Origin: Gemmatimonadales bacterium
GTDB lineage: Bacteria > Gemmatimonadota > Gemmatimonadetes > Gemmatimonadales > GWC2-71-9
Assembly: GCA_035712665.1 (NCBI GenBank)
Contig: DASTAN010000098.1
Coordinates: 1-53,438, forward strand
Direction of reading: 5' to 3'
Length of the DNA: 53,438 bases
In this document: piece by piece, positions 6,704 through 53,327 of the stretch
How positions within the stretch are numbered: the first letter of the stretch is position 1
Layout: each line of letters opens with the position of its first letter
Made by a program: the position numbers and the translations under genes
The notes under the pieces: model-generated
What the model saw: only the letters and a program-made list of their open reading frames with translations
What the model was told of the DNA's origin: nothing
Database searches by the model: none

Positions 6704-6716
6704 TTAGCTTTCGGCG

Positions 6717-11671: not shown

Positions 11672-11677
11672 CCAGCA

Positions 11678-11754
11678 GGACACGCGACAAAGGACACGCG
11701 ACAAGGGATCTCGGTTCAGGCGCCCTTGTCACGCGTCCCGTGTCCCTTGTCCCC
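11678..11754. repeat. Heptamer-periodic imperfect palindrome (GGACACG/GGACAAG units)
   Basis: GGACACGCGACAAAGGACACGCGACAAGGG ... CCCTTGTCACGCGTCCCGTGTCCCTTGTCCCC. The arms are complementary apart from a few mismatches. Confidence 0.8.
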
Positions 11755-11790: not shown

Positions 11791-12258
11791 GTGCTAGCGC
11801 CTCTTCAGGAACACGCCGTCCTCGGCTTTCTCCACACCCCGTTCGATCCGACCGATGATCCGCCGCCCCCCGCGGTCCGGCGGGCGGTCCTGCGGGTCCG
11901 GGAGCTCCTCGCCCGACTGCTCCGCGACGAGGCCCGCGGGGTCGGTGCGAGCGACGCCGACCTCGACGCGCTGGACCGGATCCTGAGCCGAGCCGCCGCC
12001 GCCCGCGGGCTCGTGCCCACCGTCAGCGGCTACGGCTGGGGGTGGCGTCGCGACCCCGGCGAGGTCACCCGCCGAGTCTTCCCTGCGGTCTGGTCGACCG
12101 CCACCCTCCTCGCCTCACACGACGACCGCACCCGACTCAAGGTCTGCGACGGCTGCGGCGCGCTGTTCTTCGATCGCTCTCGCAACCGCTCCCGCCGCTG
12201 GTGCGACATGGGGAGCTGCGGGAACCGGGCGAAGGCGAGGGCCTACAGGAAACGGTGA
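11791..12258 (+). CDS. CGNR zinc-finger domain protein (ABATE/zf-CGNR family)
   Basis: C-terminal ...CDGCGALFFDRSRNRSRRWCDMGSCGNRAKARAYR is the CGNR signature. Confidence 0.8.
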   Translation: MLAPLQEHAVLGFLHTPFDPTDDPPPPAVRRAVLRVRELLARLLRDEARGVGASDADLDALDRILSRAAAARGLVPTVSGYGWGWRRDPGEVTRRVFPAVWSTATLLASHDDRTRLKVCDGCGALFFDRSRNRSRRWCDMGSCGNRAKARAYRKR

Positions 12259-12348
12259 ACCGTGAACAGGGTGAGGGGTGAGGCGTAAGGGGTGAGGGGG
12301 CACATCCCCTGTCCCGTGTCCCGTGTCCCCATTCACTGTTCACCGTTC
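12254..12348. repeat. Composite heptamer element: GTGAAC x2, GGGGTGA x4, centre, CCCGTGT x3, GTTCAC x2
   Basis: GGTGAACCGTGAACAGGGTGAGGGGTGAGGCGTAAGGGGTGAGGGGG-CACAT-CCCCTGTCCCGTGTCCCGTGTCCCC-ATTCAC-TGTTCACCGTTC. The stop codon of the CGNR gene lies in the first unit. Confidence 0.85.
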
Positions 12349-18921: not shown

Positions 18922-19737
18922 ATGACGCCGCTCGATCTCGTCACGCCGCTTGCCCACGCCCACGCCCGGGGACCGAACGGCGTGGCGGCGTTTCGCCTCG
19001 CGCACGCGGCGCTGCTTGGGCAGCTCGCCCGCCAGCGCCGACCGTGGGATCCGAGCGAGCCGACGCTGCCGATCGTCACCCCCGGGACGCTGGCCTTCGT
19101 GCACGCCGAGGCGGTCGCCACCGCGCTTCAGGCGGTCGCACGCACCGCCGACGCGGTGGGGCTGCTGCCGCGCGATGTCGCGGTCGTCTCGTTCGTCGGC
19201 GTCGGGCCGGGCGACGCCGTCGATGTCCTGCCGCACCCGGCCTCGCCGATGATCGTCCTTGCGATGGATCAGCTCGCGGCACCGCTCGCGGCCGGCGTCG
19301 CCCTCGCCCGCGGGCTGGCCCTCGCCGCGCGCTGGCACAGCCAGGCGCTTCCCACGCCGACCCCGTGGGATCGTCTCGCCGTGCTCGCCCACGTGCCGCT
19401 CGCCGAGTGGGTGTACGCCGAAGGGCTGGCCCACCACCTCATCGCGGCGTTGCACCCGGACTGTCCGGCGCACGAGCGCCTGGGACTCTCCCGGGTCGCC
19501 TTCGATCGGCTTCGGGCGCGCGAGCAGCGGCTCCTCGCGGCCCTCGAGGCGGACCTCCCGGAGCGGGGCATCGGCCCCTGGGCGCGCTGGCTCGACGCCG
19601 CCTCGCCGGTCCCGGAGACGCCGGATGGGAGCCGGCCACCCCGCGGCGCGATCGGCTACCTGTCGTGGCGACTCCTGGCGGCACGGGTGGAGCGGGTGGG
19701 GTTGGCGGCGGCGGGGGGGATGGCGGTGGAAGGGTGA
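18922..19737 (+). CDS. Hypothetical protein
   Basis: ORF with GC3-rich codon usage and no motif I recognise. Start re-set to ATG 18922 (MTPLDLV...). The stop TGA lies inside the GAAGGGT array. Confidence 0.5.
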   Translation: MTPLDLVTPLAHAHARGPNGVAAFRLAHAALLGQLARQRRPWDPSEPTLPIVTPGTLAFVHAEAVATALQAVARTADAVGLLPRDVAVVSFVGVGPGDAVDVLPHPASPMIVLAMDQLAAPLAAGVALARGLALAARWHSQALPTPTPWDRLAVLAHVPLAEWVYAEGLAHHLIAALHPDCPAHERLGLSRVAFDRLRAREQRLLAALEADLPERGIGPWARWLDAASPVPETPDGSRPPRGAIGYLSWRLLAARVERVGLAAAGGMAVEG

Positions 19738-19770
19738 AGGGTGGAGGGCGAAGGGTGAAGGGTGGAGGGC
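19729..19770. repeat. Tandem heptamers GAAGGGT GAAGGGT GGAGGGC x2 (a perfect 21-mer duplication)
   Basis: Read directly. Contains the stop codon (19735-19737) of the upstream ORF. Confidence 0.9.
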
Positions 19771-19833
19771 GAAAAGCAACCCAAATTATCGTTCATTTAT
19801 GTGGCAAAGTGTTGCAAAACAACGGGATGCAGA

Positions 19834-19869
19834 GCGGGCGGCGCACCGGTCGCCCGATCCGCCGCCCGC
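19834..19869. terminator. GC-rich perfect 10-bp hairpin in the convergent gap (possible U-tract-less terminator)
   Basis: GCGGGCGGCG (19834-19843), a 16-nt loop, CGCCGCCCGC (19860-19869). No adjacent T-tract. Confidence 0.3.
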
Positions 19870-19870
19870 T

Positions 19871-19898
19871 CACGACTCACGACCCACGCCTCACGACT
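19871..19898. repeat. Direct tandem heptamer array (CACGACT CACGACC CACGCCT CACGACT)
   Basis: Read directly. The yidC stop codon (19891-19893, minus strand) and last codons lie inside it. Confidence 0.85.
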
Positions 19899-21558
19899 TC
19901 TTCAGCTTCTGCCGCTCCTTCATGATCAGCCACTGCTGCGGGAGCGCCGCCAGGTTCTGCACCGCGTAGTACAGGTTCAGCCCTGACGCGAACTTCGAGA
20001 ACATCAACAGGAAGACCGCCGGCATCAGGTACATCATGATCTTCGTCTGCGGGTTCGGCGGCATTCCCATCTGCCCGATCTTGGTCATCAGGTACATCGA
20101 GCCCGCCATCAGCACCGGGATGATGTAGAGCGGATCGAAGCGCGCCAGGTCCGGCATCCACAGGAAGCCAACGCCGCGCAGCTCGATCGTGTTCGCCAGC
20201 ACGAAGAAGACCGCGATCAGGAACGGATACGGCAGCAGCATCGGCCAGCAGCCGCCGAGCGGATTGACGTTGTGCTCCTTGTAGAGCTTGAACATCTCCG
20301 TCTGCAGCTTCTGCGGATCCTGCTTGTAGCGCTCCTGCAGCCGCTGCAGCTCGGGCTGGATCGCCTGCATCGCCGTCATCGACCGCATCGCCTTCTGGTT
20401 GAGCGGCCAGAGCAGCAGGCGGATCAGCACGCCGAACGTCACGATCACCCAGCCGTAGGCGAGGCCGAGGGACTCGTGCATCCAGACGAAGACGGTGCGG
20501 ATGCCGACCGCGAACGGCCGGATGATGGTGCGGAAGCCCGGCCAGCCGTACGGGTTCACGTCGTCGAAATCGCGGCCCATCGCGGTGAGATGGTCGTACT
20601 CCATCGGCCCGAGATACAGCGTCGCCGCGAAGCCGCCGCTGGTCGGCACCGTGAGCGACGCCGAGACATCCGCCCGCGTCACCGTCTCGTTGGTGTCGCG
20701 CACCGCCGCGATGACGCTGCCGATCTGCCCCTTCGGCCCGTCGGTCCGGAGCGAGTCGTACGCGAAGACGCCCATCACGAAGTACTTGTTCTTGACCGCC
20801 GCCCACTCGAACGGACCGCCGAACACCTCGGTCGAATCGGGCTCGAGCTCGCCGAACCGGGTGAGCTCGCTCTTGTCCCGCTTCACCACCACGCCGCTTT
20901 CGCGGAGGTTCTCCGCAGCCACCGCCTCGGTCTGCCGGAAGCCGTCGCCCATCCCGAGCAGCAGCGTCGCCCCCGTCACCGGGAGGCCGCCGATGGTGCC
21001 CGCGACGTCGATGCGATAGTCGTGATGCTGGAAGGTGTAGCGCAGCGTCGCCGGCAGCCCGCGCACGGTGCCGGTGAGCGTGAGGGTCTTCGTCTCGCCC
21101 TCGCCCACGACCAGGTTCTCGGCGTCCGCCGTGAAGCCGGTCGCCGCGAAGTCGACCGTGTCGCCCGCGACGATGAGCCGGTTGTCGAGCAGCGGCGCCG
21201 CCGCCGGGACCAGCTCCAGCGTGTCGCGCCCCTCGCCCTCGGCGAGCGAGCGGTACTCGAGGAAGCGGGCCGAGACGATCCGGCCGCCGCGCGTCGAGAT
21301 CCCATAGGCGTAGATCGGCGAGCGCACCTCGATCGTGTCGTCGACGATCGCCGAGGCCGCGGGCAACGCCGCGGTCGTGTCGCCAGCCGCGAGCGCCGGG
21401 GCAGGGGCCGCGAGCGGCGGGGCAACCGCGGAGTCGGTCGCGGGCGCCGCGGCGGAATCGGCCACGGCTGGTGGGGCCGGCTTCTTGAGGAAGATGCTCG
21501 GCAGGAATGCGATCACCATGATCAGCGCAATCGCAAGCAACGGACGACGATCGTTCAC
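19891..21558 (-). CDS. yidC: Membrane protein insertase YidC
   Basis: 555 aa with a large periplasmic domain and the conserved C-terminal core (...NPLGGCWPMLLPYPFLIAVFF...YYAVQNL...). Located in the canonical rnpA-yidD-yidC context. Confidence 0.9.
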   Translation of the reverse strand: MNDRRPLLAIALIMVIAFLPSIFLKKPAPPAVADSAAAPATDSAVAPPLAAPAPALAAGDTTAALPAASAIVDDTIEVRSPIYAYGISTRGGRIVSARFLEYRSLAEGEGRDTLELVPAAAPLLDNRLIVAGDTVDFAATGFTADAENLVVGEGETKTLTLTGTVRGLPATLRYTFQHHDYRIDVAGTIGGLPVTGATLLLGMGDGFRQTEAVAAENLRESGVVVKRDKSELTRFGELEPDSTEVFGGPFEWAAVKNKYFVMGVFAYDSLRTDGPKGQIGSVIAAVRDTNETVTRADVSASLTVPTSGGFAATLYLGPMEYDHLTAMGRDFDDVNPYGWPGFRTIIRPFAVGIRTVFVWMHESLGLAYGWVIVTFGVLIRLLLWPLNQKAMRSMTAMQAIQPELQRLQERYKQDPQKLQTEMFKLYKEHNVNPLGGCWPMLLPYPFLIAVFFVLANTIELRGVGFLWMPDLARFDPLYIIPVLMAGSMYLMTKIGQMGMPPNPQTKIMMYLMPAVFLLMFSKFASGLNLYYAVQNLAALPQQWLIMKERQKLKKS

Positions 21559-21577
21559 GGCAGACTCACCGTTCGGG

Positions 21578-21814
21578 TCACGGAACCGGATCGGGACCGC
21601 CCGGATGCCAGGGGTGGCACCGCGCGATCCGACGAAGCCCCAACCAGCCGCCGCGCACCACCCCGTACCGGCTCACCGCCTCGAGGGTGTACTGCGAACA
21701 GCTCGGCGTGAACCGGCACGCCGGCGGCAGGGCGGGAGAAATGAAACGCTGGTAGCCCCGAATGACGAGGACCACCAGCTGACGGGGGAACCGGAGCACC
21801 CCCGAGACCTTCAC
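21578..21814 (-). CDS. yidD: Membrane protein insertion efficiency factor YidD
   Basis: ...[32 protein letters not shown]...[16 protein letters not shown] 21814 overlaps the rnpA stop (GTGA). Confidence 0.85.
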
Positions 21815-22170
21815 GGTGTCCCGGTCCCGAGGACCAGGTCGCGCCACCCCAGCAGGTCGTCGCGCAGCTCCGCGAACGAGGCCCGATAGCTCTCGGGACG
21901 GGCGCGGATCACCGCGTCGAGGGCCGGCAGCACCGCCTGGCACTCGCGGCGCCAGAGTTCCTTGAGCCGGCGGCGCAAACGATTGCGGGCCACCGCCGAC
22001 TGCCGGAACCGTGGTACGACCAGTCCGAGTCGAGGGTGGCCCATCTCGCCGACAGCCCACAGAATGTCGAGGTGCGACCGTCGCGACCGGCGCCCCGACT
22101 GGAGCACCCGTCGCACGTCAGCCGCGCGAACCAGCCGACGCGAGCGCGGGAAGCGCTCGTCGCCGGTCAC
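21811..22170 (-). CDS. rnpA: Ribonuclease P protein component
   Basis: ...[21 protein letters not shown]......[24 protein letters not shown] (RNR motif). GTG 22170 sits 2 nt after the rpmH stop. The longer track ORF is an over-extension. Confidence 0.8.
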
Positions 22171-22172
22171 GG

Positions 22173-22331
22173 TCAGACGCGGGCGTGCTTCGACGGCAGG
22201 GAGACCGCGAGCCGCTTCCGCCCCTTCTTGCGGCGGCGCGACAGGACGGCCCGACCCCAACGGTCGGCCATCCGCTTGCGGAACCCGTGCTTGGCGATGC
22301 GGCGCTTGTTGCGCGGCTTGTACGTCGGCAT
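22173..22331 (-). CDS. rpmH: 50S ribosomal protein L34
   Basis: Hand translation [52 protein letters not shown] (52 aa). Below the ORF-track size cutoff. Classic position upstream of rnpA. Confidence 0.9.
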
Positions 22332-22403
22332 CATATCCAGAAACTCCGTCCAAAGTAGCCCGGAAGAATACCTGCCTCACCCCCCAGACGTCAAGAGTTT
22401 GAC

Positions 22404-22412
22404 TTTTCCACA
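22404..22412. promoter_or_regulatory. DnaA-box-like 9-mer TTTTCCACA upstream of dnaA
   Basis: One mismatch to TTATCCACA. Weaker matches at 22332-22340 and 22456-22464. Confidence 0.35.
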
Positions 22413-22489
22413 ATGGACCGTACCTTTGGCCTCCCTTGCGACCACCGCAAGCCTTCTATCCGCACCATTCATCCGGTTCCGACACACTG

Positions 22490-23881
22490 ATGCCGCTGTC
22501 CGCCAAAGATCTCTGGAAGCGCGTGCTCGAGGGCGCCAAGGGCGCGATCCCCGAGCCGAACATCCAGACCTGGCTGGCTTCCAACGAGGCGATCTCGTGG
22601 GAGAACGGCGCGCTGCTCGTCAGCACCCCCGATGATTTCGCGAAGAAGTGGAACGAGGAGAAGTACGGGACGATCCTCACCGAGGTTGCCACGCGTGTCG
22701 CCGCCGAGCCGGTGACCGTGGCCTTCCAGGTGGCGGCCGAGCGCACCAAGCGGCCGCAGATGGATCTCTTCGTCCCGACCGCACCCGCGCAGCCCGCGCC
22801 GGCGCCGGCCACCCCGGTCAACCCGAGCACGCAGCCGCTCAACGACCGGTACACGTTCCAGCACTTCGTCATCGGCAAGTCGAACGAGCTCGCCGCCGCC
22901 GCCGCCCTTGCCGTGGCCGAAGCCCCCGGCAAGCAGTACAACCCGTTCTTCATCTACGGCCCGACGGGCCTCGGCAAGACCCACCTGATGCAGGCGATCG
23001 CGCACACCGTCTGTGCGCGGAACCCGGGGACCCGGGTCCTGTACGTGGGGGCCGAGCAGTTCATCAACGAGGTGATCGAGGGGATCCACGGGCGCACGAT
23101 GCCCGACCTGCGCCGTCGCTACCGCACCGACGTCGACCTCTTCCTGGTCGACGACGTGCACTTCCTCGAGGGGAAGGAAGCGACGCAGGAGGAGTTCTTC
23201 CACACCTTCAATGCGCTCTACGAGGCGGGGAAGCAGATCGTCCTCACCTCGGACCGGCTCCCGAAGGAGATCCCCGGCCTCGAGGCGCGCCTCGTCTCCC
23301 GCTTCGAGTGGGGGATGGTCGCCGACGTGAAGTCGCCCGACCTCGAGCACCGGATCGCGATCCTCCGGAAGAAGCAGGAGCAGGACCACCTCGAGACGAC
23401 GATCCCCGACGACGTCCTCCGCTTCATCGCCGAGAACGTCCGGTCGAACGTCCGCGAGCTCGAGGGGTGCATCATCAAGCTCCTCCTCTTCGCGTCGCTC
23501 AAGCACCGGGAGATCTCGATCGACCTCGCCCGCGAGGCGCTGGCTGACAAGATGCGCCCCGCCGACGACGGCGACGCGCACCCCAAGGCGCTGCCGACGA
23601 TCGAGAAGGTGCAGGAGGTCGTCGCCCGGCGCTGGGGCGTGACGCCGGAGGGGCTCCGCTCCAAGGCGCGCATCAAGACGCTGACCGTGCCGCGGCAGAT
23701 CGCGATGTTCCTCGCGCGCGAGCTGCTCCAGATGCAGCTCGTGGAGATCGGCCAGGCGTTCGGCGGGCGCGACCATTCCACGGTGATCCACAGCGTGGAC
23801 AAGGTGCAGAACCAGCTGTCGCGCGATCGGCAGTTCCGCGACCGTGTGGACAGCGCGCGGGCCGAGTTGCTCACGACCTGA
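22490..23881 (+). CDS. dnaA: Chromosomal replication initiator protein DnaA
   Basis: Walker A GPTGLGKTHL, ...LLVDDVHFL..., a sensor/box VII region, and the C-terminal DNA-binding ...GGRDHSTVIHSVDKV. Start re-set to ATG 22490. Confidence 0.95.
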   Translation: MPLSAKDLWKRVLEGAKGAIPEPNIQTWLASNEAISWENGALLVSTPDDFAKKWNEEKYGTILTEVATRVAAEPVTVAFQVAAERTKRPQMDLFVPTAPAQPAPAPATPVNPSTQPLNDRYTFQHFVIGKSNELAAAAALAVAEAPGKQYNPFFIYGPTGLGKTHLMQAIAHTVCARNPGTRVLYVGAEQFINEVIEGIHGRTMPDLRRRYRTDVDLFLVDDVHFLEGKEATQEEFFHTFNALYEAGKQIVLTSDRLPKEIPGLEARLVSRFEWGMVADVKSPDLEHRIAILRKKQEQDHLETTIPDDVLRFIAENVRSNVRELEGCIIKLLLFASLKHREISIDLAREALADKMRPADDGDAHPKALPTIEKVQEVVARRWGVTPEGLRSKARIKTLTVPRQIAMFLARELLQMQLVEIGQAFGGRDHSTVIHSVDKVQNQLSRDRQFRDRVDSARAELLTT

Positions 23882-25275: not shown

Positions 25276-25291
25276 ACGTCGCCTTGCATCG

Positions 25292-25322
25292 AGGCGCGGG
25301 GGCCAGATCCCCGCGCCTTTTT
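25292..25322 (+). terminator. Rho-independent terminator downstream of dnaN
   Basis: AGGCGCGGGG (25292-25301), a 7-nt loop, CCCCGCGCCT (25309-25318), followed by a TTTTT run. Confidence 0.7.
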
Positions 25323-27148: not shown

Positions 27149-27217
27149 GAGATGAGTGATCGGAGATCGGAGATCGGAGGCGCGCCCTCCGATCTCTGAT
27201 CGCTGATCTCAGGTCTC
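27149..27217. repeat. GATCGGA-type palindromic element, copy E2
   Basis: GAGATGAGTGATCGGAGATCGGAGATCGGAGG-CGCGC-CCTCCGATCTCTGATCGCTGATCTCAGGTCTC. Hand pairing gives 24 Watson-Crick pairs, 3 G-T pairs and 5 mismatches over 32 positions. Confidence 0.9.
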
Positions 27218-29761: not shown

Positions 29762-30140
29762 GGGGTGAGGTCGGACCGTAAGCCGAGTCCTGTTCCCGGC
29801 CCGAAGGCGCGGGTGATGATCATCTCTCTGGGATGCCGGTCGCCCGGCACCTCAAGCAGCCTACCCGTGGCTCCGACGGTGCGGGCCGCACCTCGCCACC
29901 TATTTGGCCTTGCTCCGACCGGGGGTTGCCGTGCCGTTCCCGTTGCCGGGACCGCGGTGGGCTCTTACCCCACCATTTCACCCTTGCCTGTACCCCGAAG
30001 GGCCATCGGCGGTGTCTTTCTGTTGCCCTGTCCGTCGCCTTGCGGCGCCCAGGCGTTACCTGGCGGTCTGCCCTGTGGAGCTCGGACTTTCCTCGGTCGG
30101 GTTGCCCCGACCGCGATCATCGCGTCCAACCTCGCCGGTG
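29762..30140 (-). ncRNA. rnpB: RNase P RNA, bacterial type A (ends approximate, about +/-10 nt)
   Basis: The minus strand carries GAGGAAAGUCCGAGCUCC (30077-30094), AGGGUGAAAUGGUGGGGUAAGAGCCCACC (29957-29985), GGAGCAAGGCCAAAUAGG and ACAGGACUCGGCUUAC (29778-29793). A P1 helix can be drawn between GGCGAGGUUGGAC at the 5' end and GUCCGACCUCACC at the 3' end. Confidence 0.9.
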
Positions 30141-31120: not shown

Positions 31121-31190
31121 GAGAGGGGGGATCGGAGATCGGAGATCCGAGGGTGCATTCTCCGATCTCCGATCTCTGGTCACCGATCTC
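31121..31190. repeat. GATCGGA-type palindromic element, copy E3
   Basis: GAGAGGGGGGATCGGAGATCGGAGATCCGAGGG-TGCAT-TCTCCGATCTCCGATCTCTGGTCACCGATCTC. Confidence 0.9.
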
Positions 31191-32734: not shown

Positions 32735-34084
32735 ATGCCCACTCTGACTCGTCGTGCCGCCCTGCTGCTCGCCGTGGCGCCCCTCGCCGCCTGCACCTCG
32801 TGGCAGCGCGTCGGTGACACCACCTCGCCCAATCCCGAGGCGACGCTCACCCAGCTCTTCAACCCGGGCCCGCTCTACGCCCGCCTCGGGCGGCTGGTCT
32901 CGACGGGGCAGATCCCGTTCATCGGATCGGTGGCGCAGCTGCCGGGGCCGGGCGACTCGACCCGCGTCCTCATCGGCGTCTCGCTGGCCAATCGGGCCTT
33001 CACCTTCGAGCGAGTCGGCGATCGCTACGAGGCGCCGTATCGCATCGAATACACGCTGAGCCGCCCCGAGGCGCCGCCGCGCACCGTGCGCCAGGAGTCC
33101 TCGCTTCGCGTCGCCACGCTGCAGGAGTCGCTGCGCACCGACGAGTCGCTGCTGCTGCAGCAGGAGATCGACGTCGCGCCCGGGACCTACCAGCTCACCG
33201 TCCGCGTCACCGATCCGCGCGGCAACCAGGTCGGCACGGCGCAGCAGGAGATCGTCGCCCGCCCCTTCGCGCCGGGGACGATTTCGACGCCGATGCTGGC
33301 CTACCAGGCCACCGGGCGCGGCGCGCGCGGCGACTCGCTCGCCGTGGTGATGAACTCCCGCGGTGCGATCGCGTACGGCGGCGACACGCTGATGGTCTAC
33401 CTCGAGGGCGTCGGCTTCACGCAGCCCACGACGGTGCCGGTCGAGGTGCGCGACGAGCGCGACAGCGTGGTCACCCGCGTCGCGCTCCGCTTCACCGGGG
33501 CCCGCGAGATCGAGTCGCAGGTGATCCGCGTCGCCCCTGACTCGGCCCCCCTCGGCCAGCTACAGGTGATCGTGCAGGGCCCCGACACCGTGCGCACCGT
33601 GTCGGCGCTGGTGTCGTTCTCCGGCAACTGGGTGATCACCAACTTCGACGACCTCCTGTCGCTGCTCCGCTACTTCGGCGAGGACACCCGCCTCGAGCAG
33701 ATGCGCGACGCGCCGATGCAGGATCGCATCGAGCTCTGGCGCGACTTCTACCGCCGCACCGACCCGAACCGCCAGACGCCCGAGAACGAGGCGATCGACG
33801 CCTACTTCGCCCGTGTCGCGATCGCGAACCTGCGCTTCCGCGACGAGGGGATCCCCGGCTGGCGCACCGATCGCGGCGAGGTGTTCATCACCTTCGGCAA
33901 TCCCGACGAGGCGTTCGACGCGTCGCCGCTCAACCAGGGGCGCTACGTGCGCTGGGCCTACAACGACCTCCGCCTGATCGTCTTCTTCCAGGACGTCACC
34001 GGCTTCGGGCGCTTCCGACTCACCCCGCAGTCGCGCGCCGAGTTCGAGCGGATCCGCCGGCGGGAGCTGCGGCCGGCACAGTGA
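32735..34084 (+). CDS. GWxTD-domain lipoprotein
   Basis: Lipobox ...LAVAPLAAC and a C-terminal ...EGIPGWRTDRGEVFITFGNPDE... signature. Start re-set to ATG 32735. Confidence 0.8.
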   Translation: MPTLTRRAALLLAVAPLAACTSWQRVGDTTSPNPEATLTQLFNPGPLYARLGRLVSTGQIPFIGSVAQLPGPGDSTRVLIGVSLANRAFTFERVGDRYEAPYRIEYTLSRPEAPPRTVRQESSLRVATLQESLRTDESLLLQQEIDVAPGTYQLTVRVTDPRGNQVGTAQQEIVARPFAPGTISTPMLAYQATGRGARGDSLAVVMNSRGAIAYGGDTLMVYLEGVGFTQPTTVPVEVRDERDSVVTRVALRFTGAREIESQVIRVAPDSAPLGQLQVIVQGPDTVRTVSALVSFSGNWVITNFDDLLSLLRYFGEDTRLEQMRDAPMQDRIELWRDFYRRTDPNRQTPENEAIDAYFARVAIANLRFRDEGIPGWRTDRGEVFITFGNPDEAFDASPLNQGRYVRWAYNDLRLIVFFQDVTGFGRFRLTPQSRAEFERIRRRELRPAQ

Positions 34085-34174
34085 ACGGTAAGTGGTGAAC
34101 GGTGAACGGGGGTGACACGCGACAGGGGACAAGAGACATGGATCCAGCGTCCCGTGTCCCTTGTCCCGTGTCAC
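34081..34174. repeat. Composite heptamer element: GTGAACG x3-4, then a GGGACAC-type imperfect palindrome
   Basis: GTGAACGGTAAGTGGTGAACGGTGAACGGGGGTGACACGCGACAGGGGACAAGAGACATG-GATCCAG-CGTCCCGTGTCCCTTGTCCCGTGTCAC. The stop codon of the GWxTD gene lies in the first unit. Confidence 0.85.
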
Positions 34175-34191: not shown

Positions 34192-37044
34192 ATGCAACAA
34201 GTCTTCCTCATCGACGGCTACGCGCTGATCTATCGCGCGTTCTTCGCGCTCATCACCCGGCCGCTGCGCACCGGCAAGGGCGAGAACACCAGCGCCGCGT
34301 GGGGGGTGACGAACTTCCTCCTCCGTCTCCGCGAGAAGTACCGCCCGGACTATGTGGTCTGGGTCAACGACGCCGGCGACTCGTTCCGCACCCAGGCCTA
34401 CGCCGAGTACAAGAGCACTCGCGAGAAGCTCGACGACGAGCTGCAGGCGGACTTCGACACCGCCGTCGAGCGGGTGCGCGAGCTGCTCGCCGCCTTCCGG
34501 ATCCCGCTGGTCGAGGTCGACGGCTACGAGGCCGACGACGTGATCGGCACGCTGGCGAAGCGCGCGGCCGCCGCGGGGCTCGAGGCGGTGATTGTCTCGG
34601 GCGACAAGGACTTCTATCAGCTCATCGGCCCCGGGATCGCGCTGCTCAACCCCGGGCGCGGCGGTCCGGCCGGGGTCGACGAGACCTGGGTCACCGAGGC
34701 CAATGCCTCCGAGCGACTCGGCGTCCCGCCCCACCAGGTCACCGACTGGCTCGCCCTGGTCGGCGACTCGTCCGACAACGTCCCCGGCGTGAAGGGGATC
34801 GGCGAGAAGGGCGCGGTGCAGCTCCTCACCGAGTACGGCGACCTCGAGACGCTGCTCGCGCGCGCGGCGGACGTGACGGCGAAGCGCGCCCGCGAGGCGC
34901 TGCTCGCCCACGCCGACAACGCCCGCCTCTCGAAGCAGCTCGTGACGATCATGACCGATGTGCCGGTCGAGCTCGATCTCCACGCCCTCGAGGCGCACGC
35001 GCCCGATGTCGCGTCGCTGGCGCGGGTGTTCAACGAGCTGGAATTCCATTCGCTGTTGCCCCGACTGGAAAAGATCGAGAGGGGAGATCAGCGATCGGAG
35101 ATCGGAGCAGGGGGACACGGGACACGGGACACGGGACAGGAGGCGGGTGACGGGGCCAGTGCCCCCGCCCCCCTCACCCCTCACCCCTCACCGGTCGCGA
35201 CGACGGTCATCGAGGATGCATCAGCGCTCCCCGGCCTGATCGCCGAATTGCGCCGGGCCGGGATGGTCGCCTTCGACACCGAGACCTCGTCGCTCGAGCC
35301 GCGCGACGCCGAGCTGATCGGCCTCGGGCTCGCGATCACGCCGGAGCGCGCGTGGTACCTGTCGTTCGGGCATCGCGCACCGGGGGCCGATCTCTTCGGC
35401 GATGGCGCGGGCGGCGACGTGGTGCCGGTGCGGAACCTCCCGCCGATCACCGATCCGGCGTGCGCCGAGCTGAAGGCGCTGCTCGAGGATCCGACGGTGC
35501 CGAAGGCCGGGCACAACCTGAAGTACGACGTGCAGGTGATGCGTCGCGCCGGGGTGGAGGTGCAGGGGCTCGCCTTCGACTCGATGCTGGCGTCGTTCGT
35601 CCTCGACCCCTCGCGCCGCTCGCACGGCATCGACGCGCTCTCGCTCGAGTTCCTCGGCCGACCGATGACGCAGTTCACCGACCTCGTGGGGAAGGGGAAG
35701 GCGCAGATCCCGTTCGCCGAGGTCGAGGTCGCGAAGGCCGCGGCGTACTGCGGCGCCGATGCGGCGACGGTGCTGTCGCTTCGTGATCGCTTCGATCCGG
35801 AGCTCGACCGCCACGCGCTCCGGACGCTGCTCGAGACGCTCGAGATGCCGCTGATCCGCGTGCTGGTGGACATGGAGTGGACCGGGATCGCGATCGACCC
35901 CGCCCACTTCGCGAAGCTCGCCGAAGAGCTCGGCCACGACCTCGACGTGCTCGATGCCGAGATCCGTCGCGTCGCGGACGAACCGGGGCTCAACATCAAC
36001 TCGCCGAAGCAGCTTGCCGAGATCCTCTTCACGAAGCTCGAGCTCCCGGTCATCAAGCGCACCAAGACCGGCCCCAGCACCGATGCCGAGGTCCTCGACA
36101 CGCTCGCCGAGCAGGGCCACGAGCTGCCGCGCCTCATCCTCGGCTATCGCGAGCTGCAGAAGCTCAAGAGCACCTACGTCGACGTCCTCCCCGCGAAGGT
36201 GCGCCGCGACACGGGGCGGATCCACACCTCGTTCAACCAGATCGGCGCGCAGACCGGGCGGCTCTCGTCGAACGACCCGAACCTGCAGAACATCCCGATC
36301 CGCACGCCGCGCGGCGAGGCGATCCGCCGCGGCTTCATCCCGCAGGCCGGGTGGCAGTTCGTGGTGGCCGACTACTCGCAGATCGAGCTGCGGCTGATGG
36401 CGCACCTCTCGGGCGACCCGGCCTTCGTGCAGGCGTTCCGCGAGGGCGGCGACATCCATCGCCAGACGGCAGCGCTGATCTTCGGCGTGCCGGTGGCGGA
36501 GGTGACGCCCGAGATGCGCGCGCGCGCCAAGACGATCAACTTCGGGACGATCTACGGGCAGGGGCCGTTCGCGCTCGCGAAGCAGCTGGGGATCACGCAG
36601 GACGAGGCGAAGGCGTTCATCGGCGACTACTTCACCCGCTTCAGCGGGGTGCGGGCCTACCTCGACCGCCAGGTCGAGATCGCGCGCGAGCAGGGCTACG
36701 TCGAGACCCTCTTCGGGCGCCGGCGCTACATCCCCGAGATCCGCGACAAGAACTTCAACCTCCGCTCGTTCGCCGAGCGCACGGCGCAGAACACCCCGCT
36801 GCAGGGGTCGGCCGCCGACCTCATCAAGCGCGCGATGCTCGCGGTGCACGCCGCGCTCCCCGCCGAGGGGCTCCGGTCACGGCTGCTGCTGCAGGTGCAC
36901 GACGAACTGGTGGTCGAGGCCCCGGCCGAGGAGGCCGAGCGCACCGCGGAGGTGCTCAGGCGCTGCATGGTCGGCGCGGCCCAGCTCGACGTGCCGCTGG
37001 AGGTCGGGATCGGGATCGGGGGGAACTGGAAGGACGCCAAATAG
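34192..37044 (+). CDS. polA: DNA polymerase I
   Basis: 5' nuclease (...GDSSDNVPGVKGIGEKGA...), 3'-5' exonuclease (AFDTETSSL), polymerase motifs A DYSQIELR, B KTINFGTIYG and C LQVHDELVVE. One continuous 950-aa frame. Confidence 0.95.
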   Translation: MQQVFLIDGYALIYRAFFALITRPLRTGKGENTSAAWGVTNFLLRLREKYRPDYVVWVNDAGDSFRTQAYAEYKSTREKLDDELQADFDTAVERVRELLAAFRIPLVEVDGYEADDVIGTLAKRAAAAGLEAVIVSGDKDFYQLIGPGIALLNPGRGGPAGVDETWVTEANASERLGVPPHQVTDWLALVGDSSDNVPGVKGIGEKGAVQLLTEYGDLETLLARAADVTAKRAREALLAHADNARLSKQLVTIMTDVPVELDLHALEAHAPDVASLARVFNELEFHSLLPRLEKIERGDQRSEIGAGGHGTRDTGQEAGDGASAPAPLTPHPSPVATTVIEDASALPGLIAELRRAGMVAFDTETSSLEPRDAELIGLGLAITPERAWYLSFGHRAPGADLFGDGAGGDVVPVRNLPPITDPACAELKALLEDPTVPKAGHNLKYDVQVMRRAGVEVQGLAFDSMLASFVLDPSRRSHGIDALSLEFLGRPMTQFTDLVGKGKAQIPFAEVEVAKAAAYCGADAATVLSLRDRFDPELDRHALRTLLETLEMPLIRVLVDMEWTGIAIDPAHFAKLAEELGHDLDVLDAEIRRVADEPGLNINSPKQLAEILFTKLELPVIKRTKTGPSTDAEVLDTLAEQGHELPRLILGYRELQKLKSTYVDVLPAKVRRDTGRIHTSFNQIGAQTGRLSSNDPNLQNIPIRTPRGEAIRRGFIPQAGWQFVVADYSQIELRLMAHLSGDPAFVQAFREGGDIHRQTAALIFGVPVAEVTPEMRARAKTINFGTIYGQGPFALAKQLGITQDEAKAFIGDYFTRFSGVRAYLDRQVEIAREQGYVETLFGRRRYIPEIRDKNFNLRSFAERTAQNTPLQGSAADLIKRAMLAVHAALPAEGLRSRLLLQVHDELVVEAPAEEAERTAEVLRRCMVGAAQLDVPLEVGIGIGGNWKDAK
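35077..35192 (+). repeat. Composite heptamer element embedded in frame in the polA inter-domain linker
   Basis: GAGAGGGGAGATCAGCGATCGGAGATCGGAG + (GGGACAC)x3-4 + a 27-nt spacer + (CCCTCAC)x3. Same module order as the intergenic element at 47199-47308. Translates as ERGDQRSEIGAGGHGTRDTGQEAGDGASAPAPLTPHPSP. Confidence 0.85.
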
Positions 37045-37047: not shown

Positions 37048-37118
37048 GAGAGGGGAGATCGGCGATCGGAGATCCGGGGGCGCGGTCTCCGATCGCCGAT
37101 CACTGATCTCCCATCTCC
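37048..37118. repeat. GATCGGA-type palindromic element, copy E5
   Basis: GAGAGGGGAGATCGGCGATCGGAGATCCGGGGG-CGCGG-TCTCCGATCGCCGATCACTGATCTCCCATCTCC. The right arm encodes the last codons and stop of the MMPL gene. Confidence 0.9.
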
Positions 37119-40260: not shown

Positions 40261-41415
40261 ATGCGCTCGCTCCTCGTGCTCCGCCTCGCCTGGTTCGCCC
40301 TCCTGATCGCCGCGCCGCAGCCGGCCTCGGCGCAGGCATCACGCATTGACGCCGCCGTGCGCGATGGCATCCGTCGCGGCACCTTCCCCGGCGCGGTCGT
40401 GGTGGTGGGCCGCGCGGACACCATCCTGTATGCGCGCGGCTACGGTCGCTTCGCCTGGTCCGGCAACAGCAGCGTGCCCGATCCCAGCCGCACGCTCTGG
40501 GACATTGCCTCGCTGTCGAAGGTGGTCGGCACGGCGAGCGCGGCGGCGGTGCTCGCTGGCGAGGGACGGCTCACGCTCGACGCGCCGGTCGCGGCGTTCC
40601 TCCCCGAGTTCACCGGCGGCGGGAAGGACAACGTCACCGTGCGGATGCTGCTCGACCACACGTCGGGGCTGCCGGCGTGGGCGAAGCTGAACGGTCCCGG
40701 GATCACCCCCGACGAGGCCGTGCGTCGGCTGCTCGCCGTGCCGCTGGCGCGGGCGCCGGGGGCGACGGCCGAGTACAGCGACCTCAACGCGATCCTCGCG
40801 GGAATGGTGCTGGAGCGCGCGGCCGGCACCACGCTCGACCGCCTCACGCGCGAGCGCGTCTTCGCGCCGCTCGGGATGACCAGCACGGCGTGGCGTCCGG
40901 CGCCGACCGACCGCACCCGCATCGTCCCGTCCGCGCGCCTCGCCGATGGCACGCAACTGGTCGGCATCGTCAACGACGAGAACGCGCGCGCCCTGGGCGG
41001 CGTCGCGGGGCACGCCGGCCTCTTCTCGACCGGCCTCGATCTCGCGCGCTTCGCGCAGGCGTGGCTCCGCGGCACGCGCCGCGGCGACGCACCCTGGGCC
41101 TCGGCCACCACCCTCGCCGCCTTCCTCGAGCGACGCCCGACCACCGGCACGCGGGCGCTCGGCTGGGACACGCCGCGCACGCCCGACGACGGCAAGCCCT
41201 CGCTCTACGGCGCGTGCGCGACGAGCACCACGGTCGGCCACACCGGCTGGACCGGCACGGCGCTCTGGCTCGATCCGCAGGCGGATCTGTTCGTGGTGCT
41301 GCTCACCAACCGGAGCTACGCGCCGCGGCGCGGCTCACGATCGTTCGACGAGATTCGATTGGTGAGGGCCGCGGTGAGTGATGCGGCGAGACGGATCGTC
41401 GGCGGGGGATGCTGA
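40261..41415 (+). CDS. Serine hydrolase, beta-lactamase (class C/esterase) family, secreted
   Basis: Signal peptide, SxxK motif ASLSKVV, ...YSDLN..., ...GHTGWTG. The start could be GTG 40255 or ATG 40261. Confidence 0.85.
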   Translation: MRSLLVLRLAWFALLIAAPQPASAQASRIDAAVRDGIRRGTFPGAVVVVGRADTILYARGYGRFAWSGNSSVPDPSRTLWDIASLSKVVGTASAAAVLAGEGRLTLDAPVAAFLPEFTGGGKDNVTVRMLLDHTSGLPAWAKLNGPGITPDEAVRRLLAVPLARAPGATAEYSDLNAILAGMVLERAAGTTLDRLTRERVFAPLGMTSTAWRPAPTDRTRIVPSARLADGTQLVGIVNDENARALGGVAGHAGLFSTGLDLARFAQAWLRGTRRGDAPWASATTLAAFLERRPTTGTRALGWDTPRTPDDGKPSLYGACATSTTVGHTGWTGTALWLDPQADLFVVLLTNRSYAPRRGSRSFDEIRLVRAAVSDAARRIVGGGC

Positions 41416-41483
41416 GAGGAGAGATCCGAGATCGGAGATCGGAGGTGCGATCTCTGATCTCCGATCACCGATCTCCCCTCTCC
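41414..41483. repeat. GATCGGA-type palindromic element, copy E6
   Basis: GAGAGGAGAGATCCGAGATCGGAGATCGGAGG-TGC-GATCTCTGATCTCCGATCACCGATCTCCCCTCTCC. It starts inside the stop codon of the upstream gene. Confidence 0.9.
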
Positions 41484-41823: not shown

Positions 41824-42978
41824 CTACTGGTTCGGTCCCGATTCGGGGAGGGTGTGCAGGGTGGCGAGCAGCGCCTCCCCGATCGCCGCGGCCTGCCAGC
41901 GGCGGACCTCCTCGATGGCGGCCAGCCCGGCAACATCCTCGGGTTGAACACGCGCGATCGCCTCGAGGGTTCCGTTCGGGCAGAGGACCCCCGGCTGCAG
42001 CCCCAGCTCCTCGGCGAGCCGGTTGCGCGTCTTCTTGAGCGCCTCGACCCGCGCCTCCCAGGCCAGGTCGGGGACGCGCCGCGGCGGTCGCTCGACCTTC
42101 GGCAGGGCCGAGTCGGGAATCGCGAGCCCCCGTTCGATCGCCGCGAGGACCTCCGGGCCACGGCGTTCGGCGACATCGCGACCGATCCCCTTCACGCGGC
42201 CCAGGTCGGCGATGGTGCGGACCGGCCGCTGGGCGAGCTCGAAGAGGACCTCGTTCCCCATCACCCGGAACGACGCCCGGTCGAGCCGGGCGGCCGTCGC
42301 CTCGCGCCAGTTGTAGAGCTCACGGAGGATCGCCATCGCCCGACGCTCGAGGGTCTTGGCCCCCTTGAGGCGGAGGTAGCCGGACTCCAGGTCCTCATCG
42401 ACCGGCGTGGTGCGGAGCAGCTCGAGGCGCTCGAACTCCTCGGCGGCCCAGCTCTCGCGGCCCATCTCGACCAGCCTGGCTAGAAGTAGCGACCGCAACT
42501 CCTCAAGGTGGTGCGTGTCGCCGGCCGCGTAGTCGAGCATCGCCGGCGAGAGCGGCCGCACCGACCAGTCGGCCCGCTGGAAGCGCTTGTCGGGGCGCAC
42601 GTCGAAGTACTTCTCGAGCAGTGCCGCGAGGCCGATCCCCGGCTCGCCCAGCAGCTGGGCGGCGATCCGGGTGTCGAAGAGCCGGGTCGCGGTGAAGCCA
42701 TACTGCTTGTGGAAGAGCCGCAGGTCGTAGTCGGCGTCGTGGAAGATCTTCTCGATGCTGCGGTCGGCCAGGATCGCCCCGATCGGCTCGAGCGAGCCGA
42801 CGCCGAGGGGGTCGATCACCACCGTCAGGTCGGGGGTCGAGAGCTGGATCAGGTAGATCCGGTCGTGATACCGGTGGAACGACGCCGCTTCGGTGTCGAG
42901 TGCGACGCGGGGCGCCCCCTCGACCTCGCGCAGGAGCACCGCGAAGTCGGCAGGCTGGTCGATCAGGCGGACGGTCAC
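41824..42978 (-). CDS. rnd: Ribonuclease D
   Basis: DEDD exonuclease motifs (VALDTEAASFHRY..IYLIQL, HDADYDL, YAAGDTHHL) plus a C-terminal HRDC-like region. GTG start at 42978. Confidence 0.85.
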   Translation of the reverse strand: MTVRLIDQPADFAVLLREVEGAPRVALDTEAASFHRYHDRIYLIQLSTPDLTVVIDPLGVGSLEPIGAILADRSIEKIFHDADYDLRLFHKQYGFTATRLFDTRIAAQLLGEPGIGLAALLEKYFDVRPDKRFQRADWSVRPLSPAMLDYAAGDTHHLEELRSLLLARLVEMGRESWAAEEFERLELLRTTPVDEDLESGYLRLKGAKTLERRAMAILRELYNWREATAARLDRASFRVMGNEVLFELAQRPVRTIADLGRVKGIGRDVAERRGPEVLAAIERGLAIPDSALPKVERPPRRVPDLAWEARVEALKKTRNRLAEELGLQPGVLCPNGTLEAIARVQPEDVAGLAAIEEVRRWQAAAIGEALLATLHTLPESGPNQ

Positions 42979-42979
42979 G

Positions 42980-43153
42980 TCAGTCCCGGCGCTTCGCGGC
43001 GACGTCGATCCCCTCGGCGGCCTGTTCGAGCGCCTTGGCGAGCGTCTTCAGGTACTCCGGGTCGAGCACCACGGGGGTGCCCATCGAGGCGTCCATCGCG
43101 AGCTGGCGGGTGAGCCGCGCGGCGTGGCGGATGTAGTCGGTTGCTGGAGGCAT
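42980..43153 (-). CDS. Small hypothetical protein (57 aa), not in the ORF track
   Basis: Hand translation MPPATDYIRHAARLTRQLAMDASMGTPVVLDPEYLKTLAKALEQAAEGIDVAAKRRD. GAAGG lies 3 nt before the ATG, third codon positions are GC-rich, and the stop sits 1 nt before the rnd GTG. Confidence 0.45.
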   Translation of the reverse strand: MPPATDYIRHAARLTRQLAMDASMGTPVVLDPEYLKTLAKALEQAAEGIDVAAKRRD

Positions 43154-43180: not shown

Positions 43181-43258
43181 GAGAGGGGAGATCGGAGATC
43201 CGAGATCGGAGGGTCTATCCTTCCCTCTCTGGTCTCCGATCTCCGATCTCTGATCTCC
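43181..43258. repeat. GATCGGA-type element, copy E7 (in a divergent promoter gap)
   Basis: GAGAGGGGAGATCGGAGATCCGAGATCGGAGGG-TCTATCCTTCCCTCTCTGG-TCTCCGATCTCCGATCTCTGATCTCC. Confidence 0.85.
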
Positions 43259-43269
43259 GCGAGGCGAAC

Positions 43270-44532: not shown

Positions 44533-44584
44533 ACAAAACCTCGCCCCCGGATGCGTGAGCGTCCGGGGGCGGAGTCTTTTGTGG
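44533..44584. terminator. Bidirectional rho-independent terminator between convergent genes
   Basis: ACAAAAC-CT-CGCCCCCGGA (44542-44551), a 10-nt loop, TCCGGGGGCG (44562-44571), then GAGTCTTTTGTG. T-rich tails are present on both strands. Confidence 0.6.
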
Positions 44585-44589
44585 GTCAT

Positions 44590-44662
44590 GGGCCTTGGGC
44601 CCTGAGCCTTGAGCGCTGCCGTGTGATGATCTGCTCACGGCTCGCGGCCCGAGGCTCACGGC
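44590..44662. repeat. Heptamer-periodic imperfect palindrome (GRGCCTT/RGCCNYG units)
   Basis: GGGCCTT GGGCCCT GAGCCTT GAGCGCT GCCGTG-TGATGATCTGC-TCACGGC TCGCGGC CCGAGGC TCACGGC. It ends at the ferredoxin stop codon. Confidence 0.75.
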
Positions 44663-47198: not shown

Positions 47199-47308
47199 GA
47201 GATGGGTGATCGGAGATCGGAGATCAGAGGGGAAAGGGACACGAGACAAAGGACGTCCCCCTCACCCCTCACCCCTCACCACTCACTTTTTCACCGTTCA
47301 CCGTTTCC
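47199..47308. repeat. Composite heptamer element, copy E8: GATCGGA arm + GGGACAC-type + CCCTCAC x3-4 + TTCACCG x2
   Basis: GAGATGGGTGATCGGAGATCGGAGATCAGAGGGG AAAGGGACACGAGACAAAGGACG TCCCCCTCACCCCTCACCCCTCACCACTCAC TTTTTCACCGTTCACCG. Confidence 0.85.
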
Positions 47309-49504: not shown

Positions 49505-49574
49505 GAGAGGGGAGATCGGAGACCGGAGATCGGAGGGCGCGATCTCGGATCTCCGATCCCCGATCTCCGATCTC
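49505..49574. repeat. GATCGGA-type palindromic element, copy E9 (inside the suf operon)
   Basis: GAGAGGGGAGATCGGAGACCGGAGATCGGAGGG-CGC-GATCTCGGATCTCCGATCCCCGATCTCCGATCTC. It fills the sufB-sufC spacer. Confidence 0.9.
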
Positions 49575-52850: not shown

Positions 52851-53278
52851 TGGCGAGCATGGACCAGCTCTACCAGACGCTCATCATCGAGCACGATCGC
52901 TCGCCGCGAAACTTCCGCACCCTCGAGGCGCCGACGCACGAGGGGCGGGGGCGGAATCCGCTCTGCGGCGACGAGGTGTCGCTGCAGCTGCGGCTCGACG
53001 CCGACGGCCGCGTGGCCGAGGTCGGCTTCCAGGGCCGCGGCTGCGCGGTGAGCAAGGCCTCGGCCTCGATGATGACCGGCGCGATCCAGGGGAAGACGGT
53101 CGAGGAAGTGCGGGAACTCTTCGATGCCTTCCACGCGTTGCTCACCGGTGGCGAGGCCGACCGCGACCGCCTCGGCAAGCTGGTCGCATTTGAAGGATTG
53201 AAGACGTATCCGATGCGCGTGAAGTGCGCCACGATGGCGTGGCACGTTCTGAAGGAAGCCGTGAGTCACGAGTCGTGA
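52850..53278 (+). CDS. sufU: SufU / IscU-like zinc-dependent sulfur transfer protein
   Basis: NPLCGDE, GRGCAVSKAS, RVKCATMAW. The ATG shares its A with the sufS TGA. Confidence 0.85.
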   Translation: MASMDQLYQTLIIEHDRSPRNFRTLEAPTHEGRGRNPLCGDEVSLQLRLDADGRVAEVGFQGRGCAVSKASASMMTGAIQGKTVEEVRELFDAFHALLTGGEADRDRLGKLVAFEGLKTYPMRVKCATMAWHVLKEAVSHES

Positions 53279-53327
53279 GTCGTCAGAGGGGCATGTTCCT
53301 TCTCACGACCCACGACTGACGACTCAC
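53261..53327. repeat. Heptamer-periodic imperfect palindrome (GTGAGTC / CACGACY units)
   Basis: GTGAGTC ACGAGTC GTGAGTC GTCAG-AGGGGCATGTTCCTTC-TCACGAC CCACGAC TGACGAC TCAC. The left arm encodes the last 6 codons and stop of sufU. Confidence 0.85.

Follow-up and report, generated by a model that had tools for sequence, protein, structure and literature searches.

The window, that is, the whole stretch of DNA that was analysed, is a metagenome-assembled contig of 53,438 bp (70.6% G + C) from a Gemmatimonadales bacterium. It carries polA, the gene for DNA polymerase I (Pol I), and inside this gene, in frame, a composite element made of tandem 7-nucleotide (nt) units (heptamers). The element makes up nearly the whole linker that joins the 5' nuclease domain to the 3'-5' exonuclease domain and is a member of a repeat family that elsewhere in the contig lies in intergenic spacers. 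The gene, its domains and the parts of the element are listed here.

34192-37044, + strand: polA, uninterrupted open reading frame (ORF) for full-length DNA polymerase I, 950 amino acids (aa) (ORF list; annotated HET9133663.1)
34201-35007, + strand: 5' nuclease domain, residues 4-272 (Pfam PF02739, residues 4-164, and PF01367, residues 178-272)
35077-35192, + strand: composite heptamer element, encoding, in frame, residues 296-334 (ERGDQRSEIGAGGHGTRDTGQEAGDGASAPAPLTPHPSP), almost all of the linker between the domains
35077-35089, + strand: terminal 13-mer GAGAGGGGAGATC, which also caps the outer ends of intergenic GATCGGA hairpins
35086-35106, + strand: GATCGGA-type arm (GATCAGC GATCGGA GATCGGA), without a complementary TCCGATC partner
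35112-35138, + strand: (GGGACAC)x3.9, 100% matches (Tandem Repeats Finder)
35139-35169, + strand: spacer of 31 nt, encoding QEAGDGASAPA and holding a small palindrome, GGGGC-CAGT-GCCCC (35152-35165)
35170-35192, + strand: (CCCTCAC)x3.3, 100% matches (Tandem Repeats Finder, unit given as CCCCTCA)
35206-35805, + strand: 3'-5' exonuclease domain, residues 339-538 (Pfam PF01612, DNA_pol_A_exo1)

The encoded protein is a family A DNA polymerase I with its three domains in one chain. The DNA_pol_A polymerase domain was found at residues 572-948 (PF00476, E = 5e-157), and all the usual catalytic motifs were seen in the translation (GYEADD, SGDKDFYQL, FDTETSS, DYSQIELR, RAKTINFGTIYG and QVHDE). A preliminary description of this DNA had reported a continuous 950-aa frame with the element translated in it, and had placed the element between the 5' nuclease and the proofreading domains. 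The ORF at 34192-37044 agrees with the frame and the translation, and the Pfam boundaries (end of 5_3_exonuc at residue 272, start of DNA_pol_A_exo1 at residue 339) agree with the location. The three modules were also as described (a GATCGGA arm, GGGACAC and CCCTCAC), but the spacer measures 31 nt and not 27. Tandem Repeats Finder additionally called AGATCGG-type units (x5.3, 70% matches) at 35072-35107, and the GATCGGA arm encodes the peptide ERGDQRSEIG. The complete linker of 49 aa consists of PRLEKI, the 39 element-encoded residues and VATT.

The interdomain region of Pol I is an exposed, protease-sensitive junction, and cleavage there yields the Klenow fragment. A structure model of residues 201-450, made with AlphaFold2 from an alignment of 18 sequences, gave a low-confidence coil for residues ~297-336 (block-mean predicted local distance difference test score, pLDDT, of 44-54) between confidently predicted domains (pLDDT mostly 83-97), the second of which was confident from about residue 337. 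The predicted coil agrees with the known exposed Klenow junction and with the disordered linker that the preliminary description had expected.

The repeat content of the element was compared with that of the remainder of the contig. Word matches were counted with mismatches allowed and set against 100 dinucleotide-preserving shuffles of the contig, tandem arrays were called with Tandem Repeats Finder, and period-7 autocorrelation was scored in 116-nt windows along the whole contig. The highest autocorrelation, 0.706 (mean 0.285, sd 0.063, z = 6.7), was found in the 116-nt window at 35077, i.e. in the polA element. The polA signal is the only one of its kind within a gene; the next ~17-18 windows by rank were intergenic spacers, as judged by inspection of a rough gene map and of the spacer sequences. 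All three unit families of the element are strongly over-represented in the contig and elsewhere intergenic, and double-unit words of each family are 10-30 times commoner in it than in the shuffles. The words GGGACACGGGACAC, CCCTCACCCCTCAC and GATCGGAGATCGGA had 11, 13 and 41 matches against 1.16, 0.81 and 1.35 expected, respectively (up to 2 mismatches, each count reached in 0 of 100 shuffles). The terminal 13-mer GAGAGGGGAGATC matched 8 times (up to 1 mismatch), with 0.19 matches expected, and the seven matches outside polA are all ends of intergenic hairpins (31121, 37048, 37105 on the - strand, 41414, 41470 on the - strand, 43181 and 49505). A stricter scan of the contig together with 80 related polA loci (680 kb) yielded 39 strong arrays. 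Five of these, at three sites, were well inside ORFs with a high G + C content at third codon positions (GC3): a pair in the contig's polA, another pair in polA of locus L050 and a doubtful case at the edge of a locus.

Also the order of the modules is shared. In polA a GATCGGA-type arm is followed by GGGACAC and then by CCCTCAC units, which is the order at the intergenic locus 47199-47305, as had been stated in the preliminary description, and the GGGACAC to CCCTCAC part recurs on the reverse strand at 12258-12345. The polA element moreover has the polarity of the paired intergenic loci, with the G-rich arm first (see below). The polA segment is thus a member of the intergenic heptamer family. 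An ordinary linker with a chance periodicity, or an artefact of assembly, is an extremely improbable explanation. Pol I linkers are indeed low in complexity and variable, and the contig does come from a metagenome assembly, but the period-7 signal is the strongest of the contig and the word counts exceed those of all shuffles. In addition, the reading frame is intact, as are the domains on either side of the element, and all are collinear with orthologs; the repeats (at most 35 nt) are shorter than sequencing reads.

Nearly every spacer in the contig contains arrays of 3-5 tandem heptamers, arranged as an arm, a loop and a complementary arm. In total ~35 period-7 arrays at ~18 loci were called by Tandem Repeats Finder, mostly with copy numbers of 3-4.6. 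Hairpins of the type (GATCGGA)n-loop-(TCCGATC)n are present at 27158, 31130, 37054, 41421, 43187 and 49511 and fold far better than shuffled sequences (z = -3.5 to -6.1); other intergenic arm pairs are GGGACAC/GTGTCCC, GGGTAAG/CTTACCC and GTGAACG/CGTTCAC. At all 17 paired loci the G-rich arm was 5' and the C-rich arm 3', and the reverse arrangement was never seen. As the arms are inverted repeats, this polarity is valid on both strands, and with random orientation it would occur about once in 65,000-130,000 cases. The loci, and those with a bearing on polA, are given below.

6352-6455, 11225-11278, 11677-11753, 12258-12345 and 19729-19898: paired heptamer loci
27158-27210, 31130-31190, 34081-34172, 37048-37117 and 41414-41482: paired heptamer loci
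43181-43259, 44589-44662, 47199-47305, 49505-49574 and 53260-53327: paired heptamer loci
47199-47305, + strand: intergenic composite of GATCGGA x4, GGGACAC-like x3, CCCTCAC x4 and TTCACCG x2
12258-12345, - strand: intergenic composite of GGGACAC x3 and CTCACCC x4 inside outer arms GTGAAC/GTTCAC
34081-34172, + strand: heptamer hairpin directly upstream of polA, GTGAACG units followed by GGGACAC-type arms (z = -2.7)
37048-37117, + strand: GATCGGA/TCCGATC hairpin in the spacer between polA and a convergent MMPL gene (z = -5.4)

The GWxTD gene upstream of polA takes its TGA stop codon from the first unit of the 34081-34172 hairpin. TGA stops within a first repeat unit (GTGAACG, GAAGGGTGA or TGAGATCGG) were observed at 34082-34084, 12256-12258, 19735-19737 and 11224-11226, so that the 3' ends of several coding sequences are adjoined or set by heptamer elements. 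The possibility that the hairpins are simply terminators was considered and rejected, since canonical terminators consisting of a GC-hairpin and a T-run are adjacent to heptamer elements but separate from them (~25290-25322 and 44535-44580) and one heptamer element is located in a divergent promoter spacer (43187-43259). The heptamer hairpins are without T-runs, which together with the separate terminators indicates that they are not the sole 3'-end signals. An Rfam scan returned no known RNA family over the heptamer elements, and no transposase domain, Y1 type included, was found in the ~30 contig proteins scanned. No description of heptamer hairpins in Gemmatimonadales was found in the literature searched, and a paper on metagenomic 3' stem-loops does not mention them.

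The codons of the element are not those of the surrounding gene. GC3 of the 39 element codons was 0.69, compared with 0.94 for polA, and the lowest value in any other 39-codon window of the gene was 0.82. The mean log codon adaptiveness was -1.02, compared with -0.24 for the gene on average and with no value below -0.48 outside the element. Several element codons are nearly absent from the contig genes (AGG 0.02, GGA 0.05, ACA 0.01, AGT 0.03, CCT 0.03 and TCA 0.04). These values bear out the earlier remark that 35077-35192 is not ordinary coding sequence.

The modules had also been described as free of stop codons on this strand. On the + strand frames 0 and 1 of the element are open, and frame 2 has one TGA, which lies in the spacer. 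On the - strand all three frames contain stops, as (GTGAGGG)n yields TGA. Three copies of a heptamer sample all three reading frames, so that an array leaves either all frames open or none. Because all - strand frames are closed, survival within a gene was possible in the observed orientation alone. As in a contingency locus, the repeat is intragenic, its unit is not a multiple of 3 and a change of unit number shifts the frame. When gain or loss of one unit was simulated, the predicted protein ended at 321-346 aa, or at 533 aa if the change was an extra CCCTCAC, with the 5' nuclease domain intact in the one-unit products; arithmetically, the predicted frameshift behind the nuclease domain holds.

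A slippage-driven switch, in which gain and loss of units toggles between full-length Pol I and a stand-alone protein resembling a flap endonuclease, is nevertheless very unlikely. It would fit the perfect 7-nt units, the simulated products and the recurrence of heptamer arrays in the same linker in another lineage (see below), and stand-alone 5' nucleases do exist in bacteria. But the arrays, with only 3-4 units, are short if slippage is to be efficient, polA is atypical as a contingency gene, and no obvious restart signal for the Klenow-like part is present, the in-frame ATG at codon 358 being inside the exonuclease domain. Copy-number variants were not found either: the protein is a singleton cluster at 90% identity in the cluster look-up, and near-identical strains were absent from species-representative genomes, metagenomes, and exact and cluster look-ups. 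The degenerate array of another locus, L045 (75% matches), fits neutral decay and not a maintained switch.

A protein search with residues 201-450 gave short fragments only, many with frameshifted tails, which we judged to be artefacts of gene calling or assembly and not evidence of a split polA. In the databases, many Gemmatimonadales "PolA" fragments on long contigs (P0001, P0004-P0006, P0016, P0024, P0031 and P0067) have frameshifted Arg-rich tails that start in or near the linker or the exonuclease region and are probably assembly or gene-calling errors.

For comparison with orthologs, 160 related polA loci (~1 Mb in total) were collected from 80 species-representative genomes and 80 metagenome contigs, and the linkers of 158 orthologs were cut out between the conserved anchors ELEFHSLL and V(I/V)xD. 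The closest polA in the scan of species-representative genomes (L001) was 79% identical; the best match in the metagenome scan was 70% identical over the N-terminal 450 aa. The linkers ranged from 15 to 91 aa (median 37.5), were not alignable and showed no sequence conservation. That of L001 has 37 aa, lacks a period of 7 and could not be aligned with the linker of the contig studied here (the source). Four diagnostic words of the source heptamer family were present in 0 of the 160 other Gemmatimonadales polA loci; the genomes concerned do have their own hairpins near polA, with heptamer or octamer units. The absence of the words from the related loci indicates that the element is derived, lineage-specific and younger than the divergence of the lineages.

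The preliminary description had suggested an alignment of orthologs to see whether the ~39 residues are a lineage-specific insertion. The element proved to be lineage-specific and the orthologous linkers hypervariable, but the net gain is only ~12 aa (49 aa compared with the median of 37.5), not the full ~39. With so small an excess over the median, the element appears to have largely replaced an older linker and not simply to have been added to it. The GASAPAP peptide of the spacer may be a remnant of an ancestral Ala/Pro-rich linker, to judge faintly from its likeness to GAAAPAP in L004.

The near-normal length also fits an origin in place, in which slippage or template switching on G- or C-rich seeds reworked the DNA of an ancestral Ala/Pro/Gly-rich linker, with no pre-formed element inserted. 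Such an origin would further agree with the resemblance of GASAPAP to orthologous linkers, with the lack of a target-site duplication and with the rapid local turnover suggested by orthologous spacers of close relatives, which differ in their units and even in their periods. We consider it unlikely, as independent growth of the exact 13-mer, a GATCGGA arm and two further families in the order found at 47199 would hardly be expected, and as the GATCGGA-arm peptide ERGDQRSEIG is unlike the Ala/Pro-rich linkers. It departs from the explanation preferred below only in the route of arrival and not in the present nature of the sequence.

The orthologous spacers mentioned were observed in four genomes closely related to one another, with near-identical PolA linkers, which carry repeat hairpins on both sides of polA.

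L007, 375-550 and 3372-3540; L008, 2656-2831 and 5653-5820: polA-flanking repeat hairpins
L009, 1973-2148 and 4970-5140; L067, 2826-3001 and 5827-5997: polA-flanking repeat hairpins

The units differ among the four (GGAGAAC, GAGAAGT, GAGACTA and GAGAAGC), and so does the period, with 8-nt units GAGAGGTT in L009 and AAGGGTTC in L067; the arms are still complementary. The pattern points to rapid, concerted turnover of units in place.

Heptamer arrays were found in the linkers of other polA genes as well. Three of the 158 linkers had a period of 7 (source 0.59, L050 0.59 and L045 0.52), all others scoring 0.44 or less. In L050 the linker carries, in frame, (GGGAGCA)x10.9 followed by complementary (CCTGCTC)x5, predicted to form a very stable hairpin (-86.6 kcal/mol, z = -5.7). 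The linker of L045 contains the degenerate array (GCCGGGA)x7.9, and a complementary (CGGCTCC) array is located 190 nt downstream of it, in a loop of the exonuclease domain. This second array (L045 4118-4152, PolA residues 373-384) is an in-frame CGGCTCC/CCCCGCT repeat of x4.4 that encodes AAPAAGSPLPAP and is absent from the source PolA. L045 and L050 are closely related to each other. Likewise related are their units (GxGAGCC and GGGAGCA) and their peptides (SREPGA and SREQGA), and the two loci were therefore not taken as two independent events but counted as probably one older event. By this count the polA linker appears to have gained heptamer arrays at least twice, with one gain apparently kept in frame through substantial divergence. 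At the peptide level only, another heptamer-derived linker could be present in the clade nearest the source: a 206-aa PolA fragment from a relative of L001 (P0003) has the linker AASGEKTASGGQRTASGEDTEAS with a periodicity of 7 aa (21 nt), GEKTASG GQRTASG EDTEAS.

The structures of these copies bear on a possible role in polA at the level of the nucleic acid, such as pausing of transcription or translation by a G-quadruplex or hairpin, an internal 3'-end or processing site, or an array bound by protein. Only 8 canonical G-quadruplex motifs (G3+N1-7 x4) are present in the 53 kb, 6 of them in heptamer elements and 2 of these in the polA element, one per strand. The putative sense-strand motif (35110-35135) is the GGGACAC array with the preceding GG, and the putative template-strand motif (35162-35187) is the CCCTCAC array with the preceding C-run. 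In Xanthomonas and Nostoc, related G-rich heptamer repeats have a preference for four units and fold into G-quadruplexes in vitro (PMC4692102), and in L050 the in-frame copy is a hairpin of very high stability. For the source copy, in contrast, the predicted fold is no stronger than that of shuffled sequence (z = -0.17 and -0.83). Complementarity between its GGGACAC and CCCTCAC arms extends to only ~5 of 7 positions, and the copy no longer has the strong hairpin seen in its intergenic relatives. Source and L050 elements share neither units nor strength of structure, and this lack of any common structure favours a tolerated passenger over a conserved role of the RNA or DNA in polA. In 155 of the 158 orthologs such an element is absent, and the separate terminators and the element in a divergent promoter leave the intergenic copies without a single obvious role. 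Overall, a function of this kind is improbable, and the polA copy presumably has none at the DNA or RNA level.

The sequence probably arose when an intergenic repeat element was captured in frame at a permissive site, the polA linker, where it is most likely a tolerated passenger. A composite copy of the intergenic family would have arrived, through insertion, template switching or gene conversion, in the unstructured stretch that connects the 5' nuclease domain to the 3'-5' exonuclease domain. After transcription and in-frame translation it would now serve as the linker in the form of a low-complexity peptide of 39 residues. Its survival would be explained by a linker with no constraint on sequence or length, by the sole stop-free orientation and by a whole number of codons. 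The perfect (100%) arrays, the atypical codons and the words missing from relatives point to a non-coding origin and to youth, and we infer that the element moved into the gene and not out of it. The view that an intergenic repeat became a linker of polA, already put forward in the preliminary description, is consistent with the shared 13-mer GAGAGGGGAGATC, the module order and the G-rich-first polarity. The accompanying statement that such an insertion is tolerated only there applies within this 53-kb contig and to nothing beyond it.

Several points weigh against capture of a pre-formed element. The closest genome is only 79% identical, and the insertion event and its direction were not seen directly. 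A simple insertion of 116 nt does not fit an excess of ~12 aa unless older linker was lost, and alternatively the arrays could have grown in place around a possible remnant, GASAPAP, which resembles L004. No target-site duplication or long terminal inverted repeat was found at the boundaries of the element; the only terminal pairing was 9 nt (89%) between GAGGGGAGA and TCACCCCTC. Flanking copies of ATCGAG were examined as a target-site duplication and rejected, being 134 nt apart, which is not a multiple of 3, and out of register. Selection, and not youth, could account for the perfect arrays and for the presence of G-quadruplex motifs on the two strands. Finally, the exact unit numbers rest on the metagenome assembly of the contig.

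According to the gene map, the contig spans the neighbourhood of the chromosomal origin. The other genes and features recorded are the following.

6708-7775: holA-like gene
8224-11226: mutS
19891-21672, - strand: yidC
21673-22402: 730-nt spacer between yidC and dnaA, a likely oriC candidate
22403-23881: dnaA
24000-25220: dnaN
29763-30133, - strand: RNase P RNA, the sole Rfam match
41824-43047, - strand: RNase D-like gene

In the convergent spacer beside yidC, an AT-rich island of ~95 nt (19774-19868, AAAAGCAACCCAAATTATCGTTCATTTATGTGGCAAAGTGTTGCAAAACAACGGG...) was noticed between two non-complementary heptamer arrays. Such an island is unusual at 70% G + C, and it had no match in Rfam.

The polA linker offers a clean example, from nature, of repeat DNA that was non-coding and has turned into protein sequence in a core enzyme of replication and repair. 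It illustrates the conditions under which repeats survive in a gene, namely an unconstrained linker, a stop-free orientation and whole codons. Being derived and lineage-specific, the element is also a dated marker for studying the spread of repeats, and in practice heptamer arrays can confuse gene callers and assemblers. The apparently undescribed repeat landscape of the Gemmatimonadales, with modular heptamer or octamer hairpins in most spacers and units that differ between close relatives, combines G-rich-first polarity with rapid unit turnover, and this is the part most worth following. It is conceivable, though doubtful, that an undescribed active process, possibly with dedicated machinery, writes and continually rewrites tandem 7-8-nt repeat hairpins into nearly every Gemmatimonadales spacer, always with the G-rich arm first and with species-specific units, and that the copies in polA linkers are its footprints in coding DNA. 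If so, the linker of a polymerase that processes the lagging strand would be a recurrent target, and in-frame arrays could double as a frameshift switch.

Among known systems, the REP/BIME elements (repetitive extragenic palindromes and bacterial interspersed mosaic elements) with REP-associated tyrosine transposases (RAYTs; PMC3733652) resemble the source family as abundant short palindromic fillers of spacers, often after stop codons. The source repeats differ in that they have neither a GTAG or CGTC head nor a single palindrome consensus of 20-40 nt, their arms being tandem 7-nt arrays, and no Y1 transposase was present among the ~30 contig proteins scanned.

The TAACTGA heptamers of Beggiatoaceae, cyanobacteria and Bacteroidetes (MacGregor 2015, PMC4679880), alongside which the cyanobacterial short tandemly repeated repetitive (STRR) heptamers are named, are likewise mostly intergenic direct repeats, with occasional copies in ORFs only in the stop-free orientation and peripheral to domains; PMC4679880 explicitly states that insertions survive at the protein periphery. 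TAACTGA, the one unit of those repeats, is AT-rich; it is found mainly upstream of start codons, is seldom inverted and has been proposed to regulate translation, whereas the source family has GC-rich units and paired arms, mostly directly after stop codons.

The Rickettsia palindromic elements (RPEs; PMC10969869) are inserted in frame in housekeeping genes. Like the source element, they form a dispersed palindromic repeat family, keep the frame and are translated as an extra peptide at a site that the fold tolerates. RPEs are ~150 bp, similar to MITEs (miniature transposable elements with inverted repeats), and encode a conserved peptide, whereas the source family consists of 7-nt arrays with non-coding intergenic copies and only one in-gene copy seen in 53 kb. 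With MITEs and RPEs the polA element shares a dispersed multi-copy family, an in-frame copy in an ORF and a structurally permissive site, but not the terminal inverted repeat or target-site duplication of a MITE, neither of which was found at its ends.

The closest counterparts of the intergenic family are the heptameric simple sequence repeats of the GGGNATC type in Xanthomonas and Nostoc (Rehm et al. 2015, PMC4692102), which belong to the "long simple sequence repeats" class of Mrazek et al. 2007 as that class is summarised in PMC4679880; the source family fits that class too. Both the Xanthomonas/Nostoc repeats and the source family are tandem 7-nt units dispersed over the genome, mostly intergenic and near stop codons, with ~4 units and often in convergent G-rich pairs able to form stem-loops. 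In the source the units are arranged head to tail, exceed chance, are mainly intergenic, number about four and occur in G-rich-first pairs. The GGGNATC consensus itself is not that of the source units (GATCGGA, i.e. GGAGATC, GGGACAC, CCCTCAC, GTGAACG, GGGTAAG and others), although GGAGATC, a rotation of GATCGGA, is one position off. The source differs further in belonging to another phylum, in combining several co-existing unit families into modular composites and in having units of a type that varies between related species at orthologous sites. A composite copy as an internal protein linker is not described in PMC4692102; of added interest here is a Pol I interdomain linker composed entirely of modular heptamer arrays, an event that has occurred more than once within the order.

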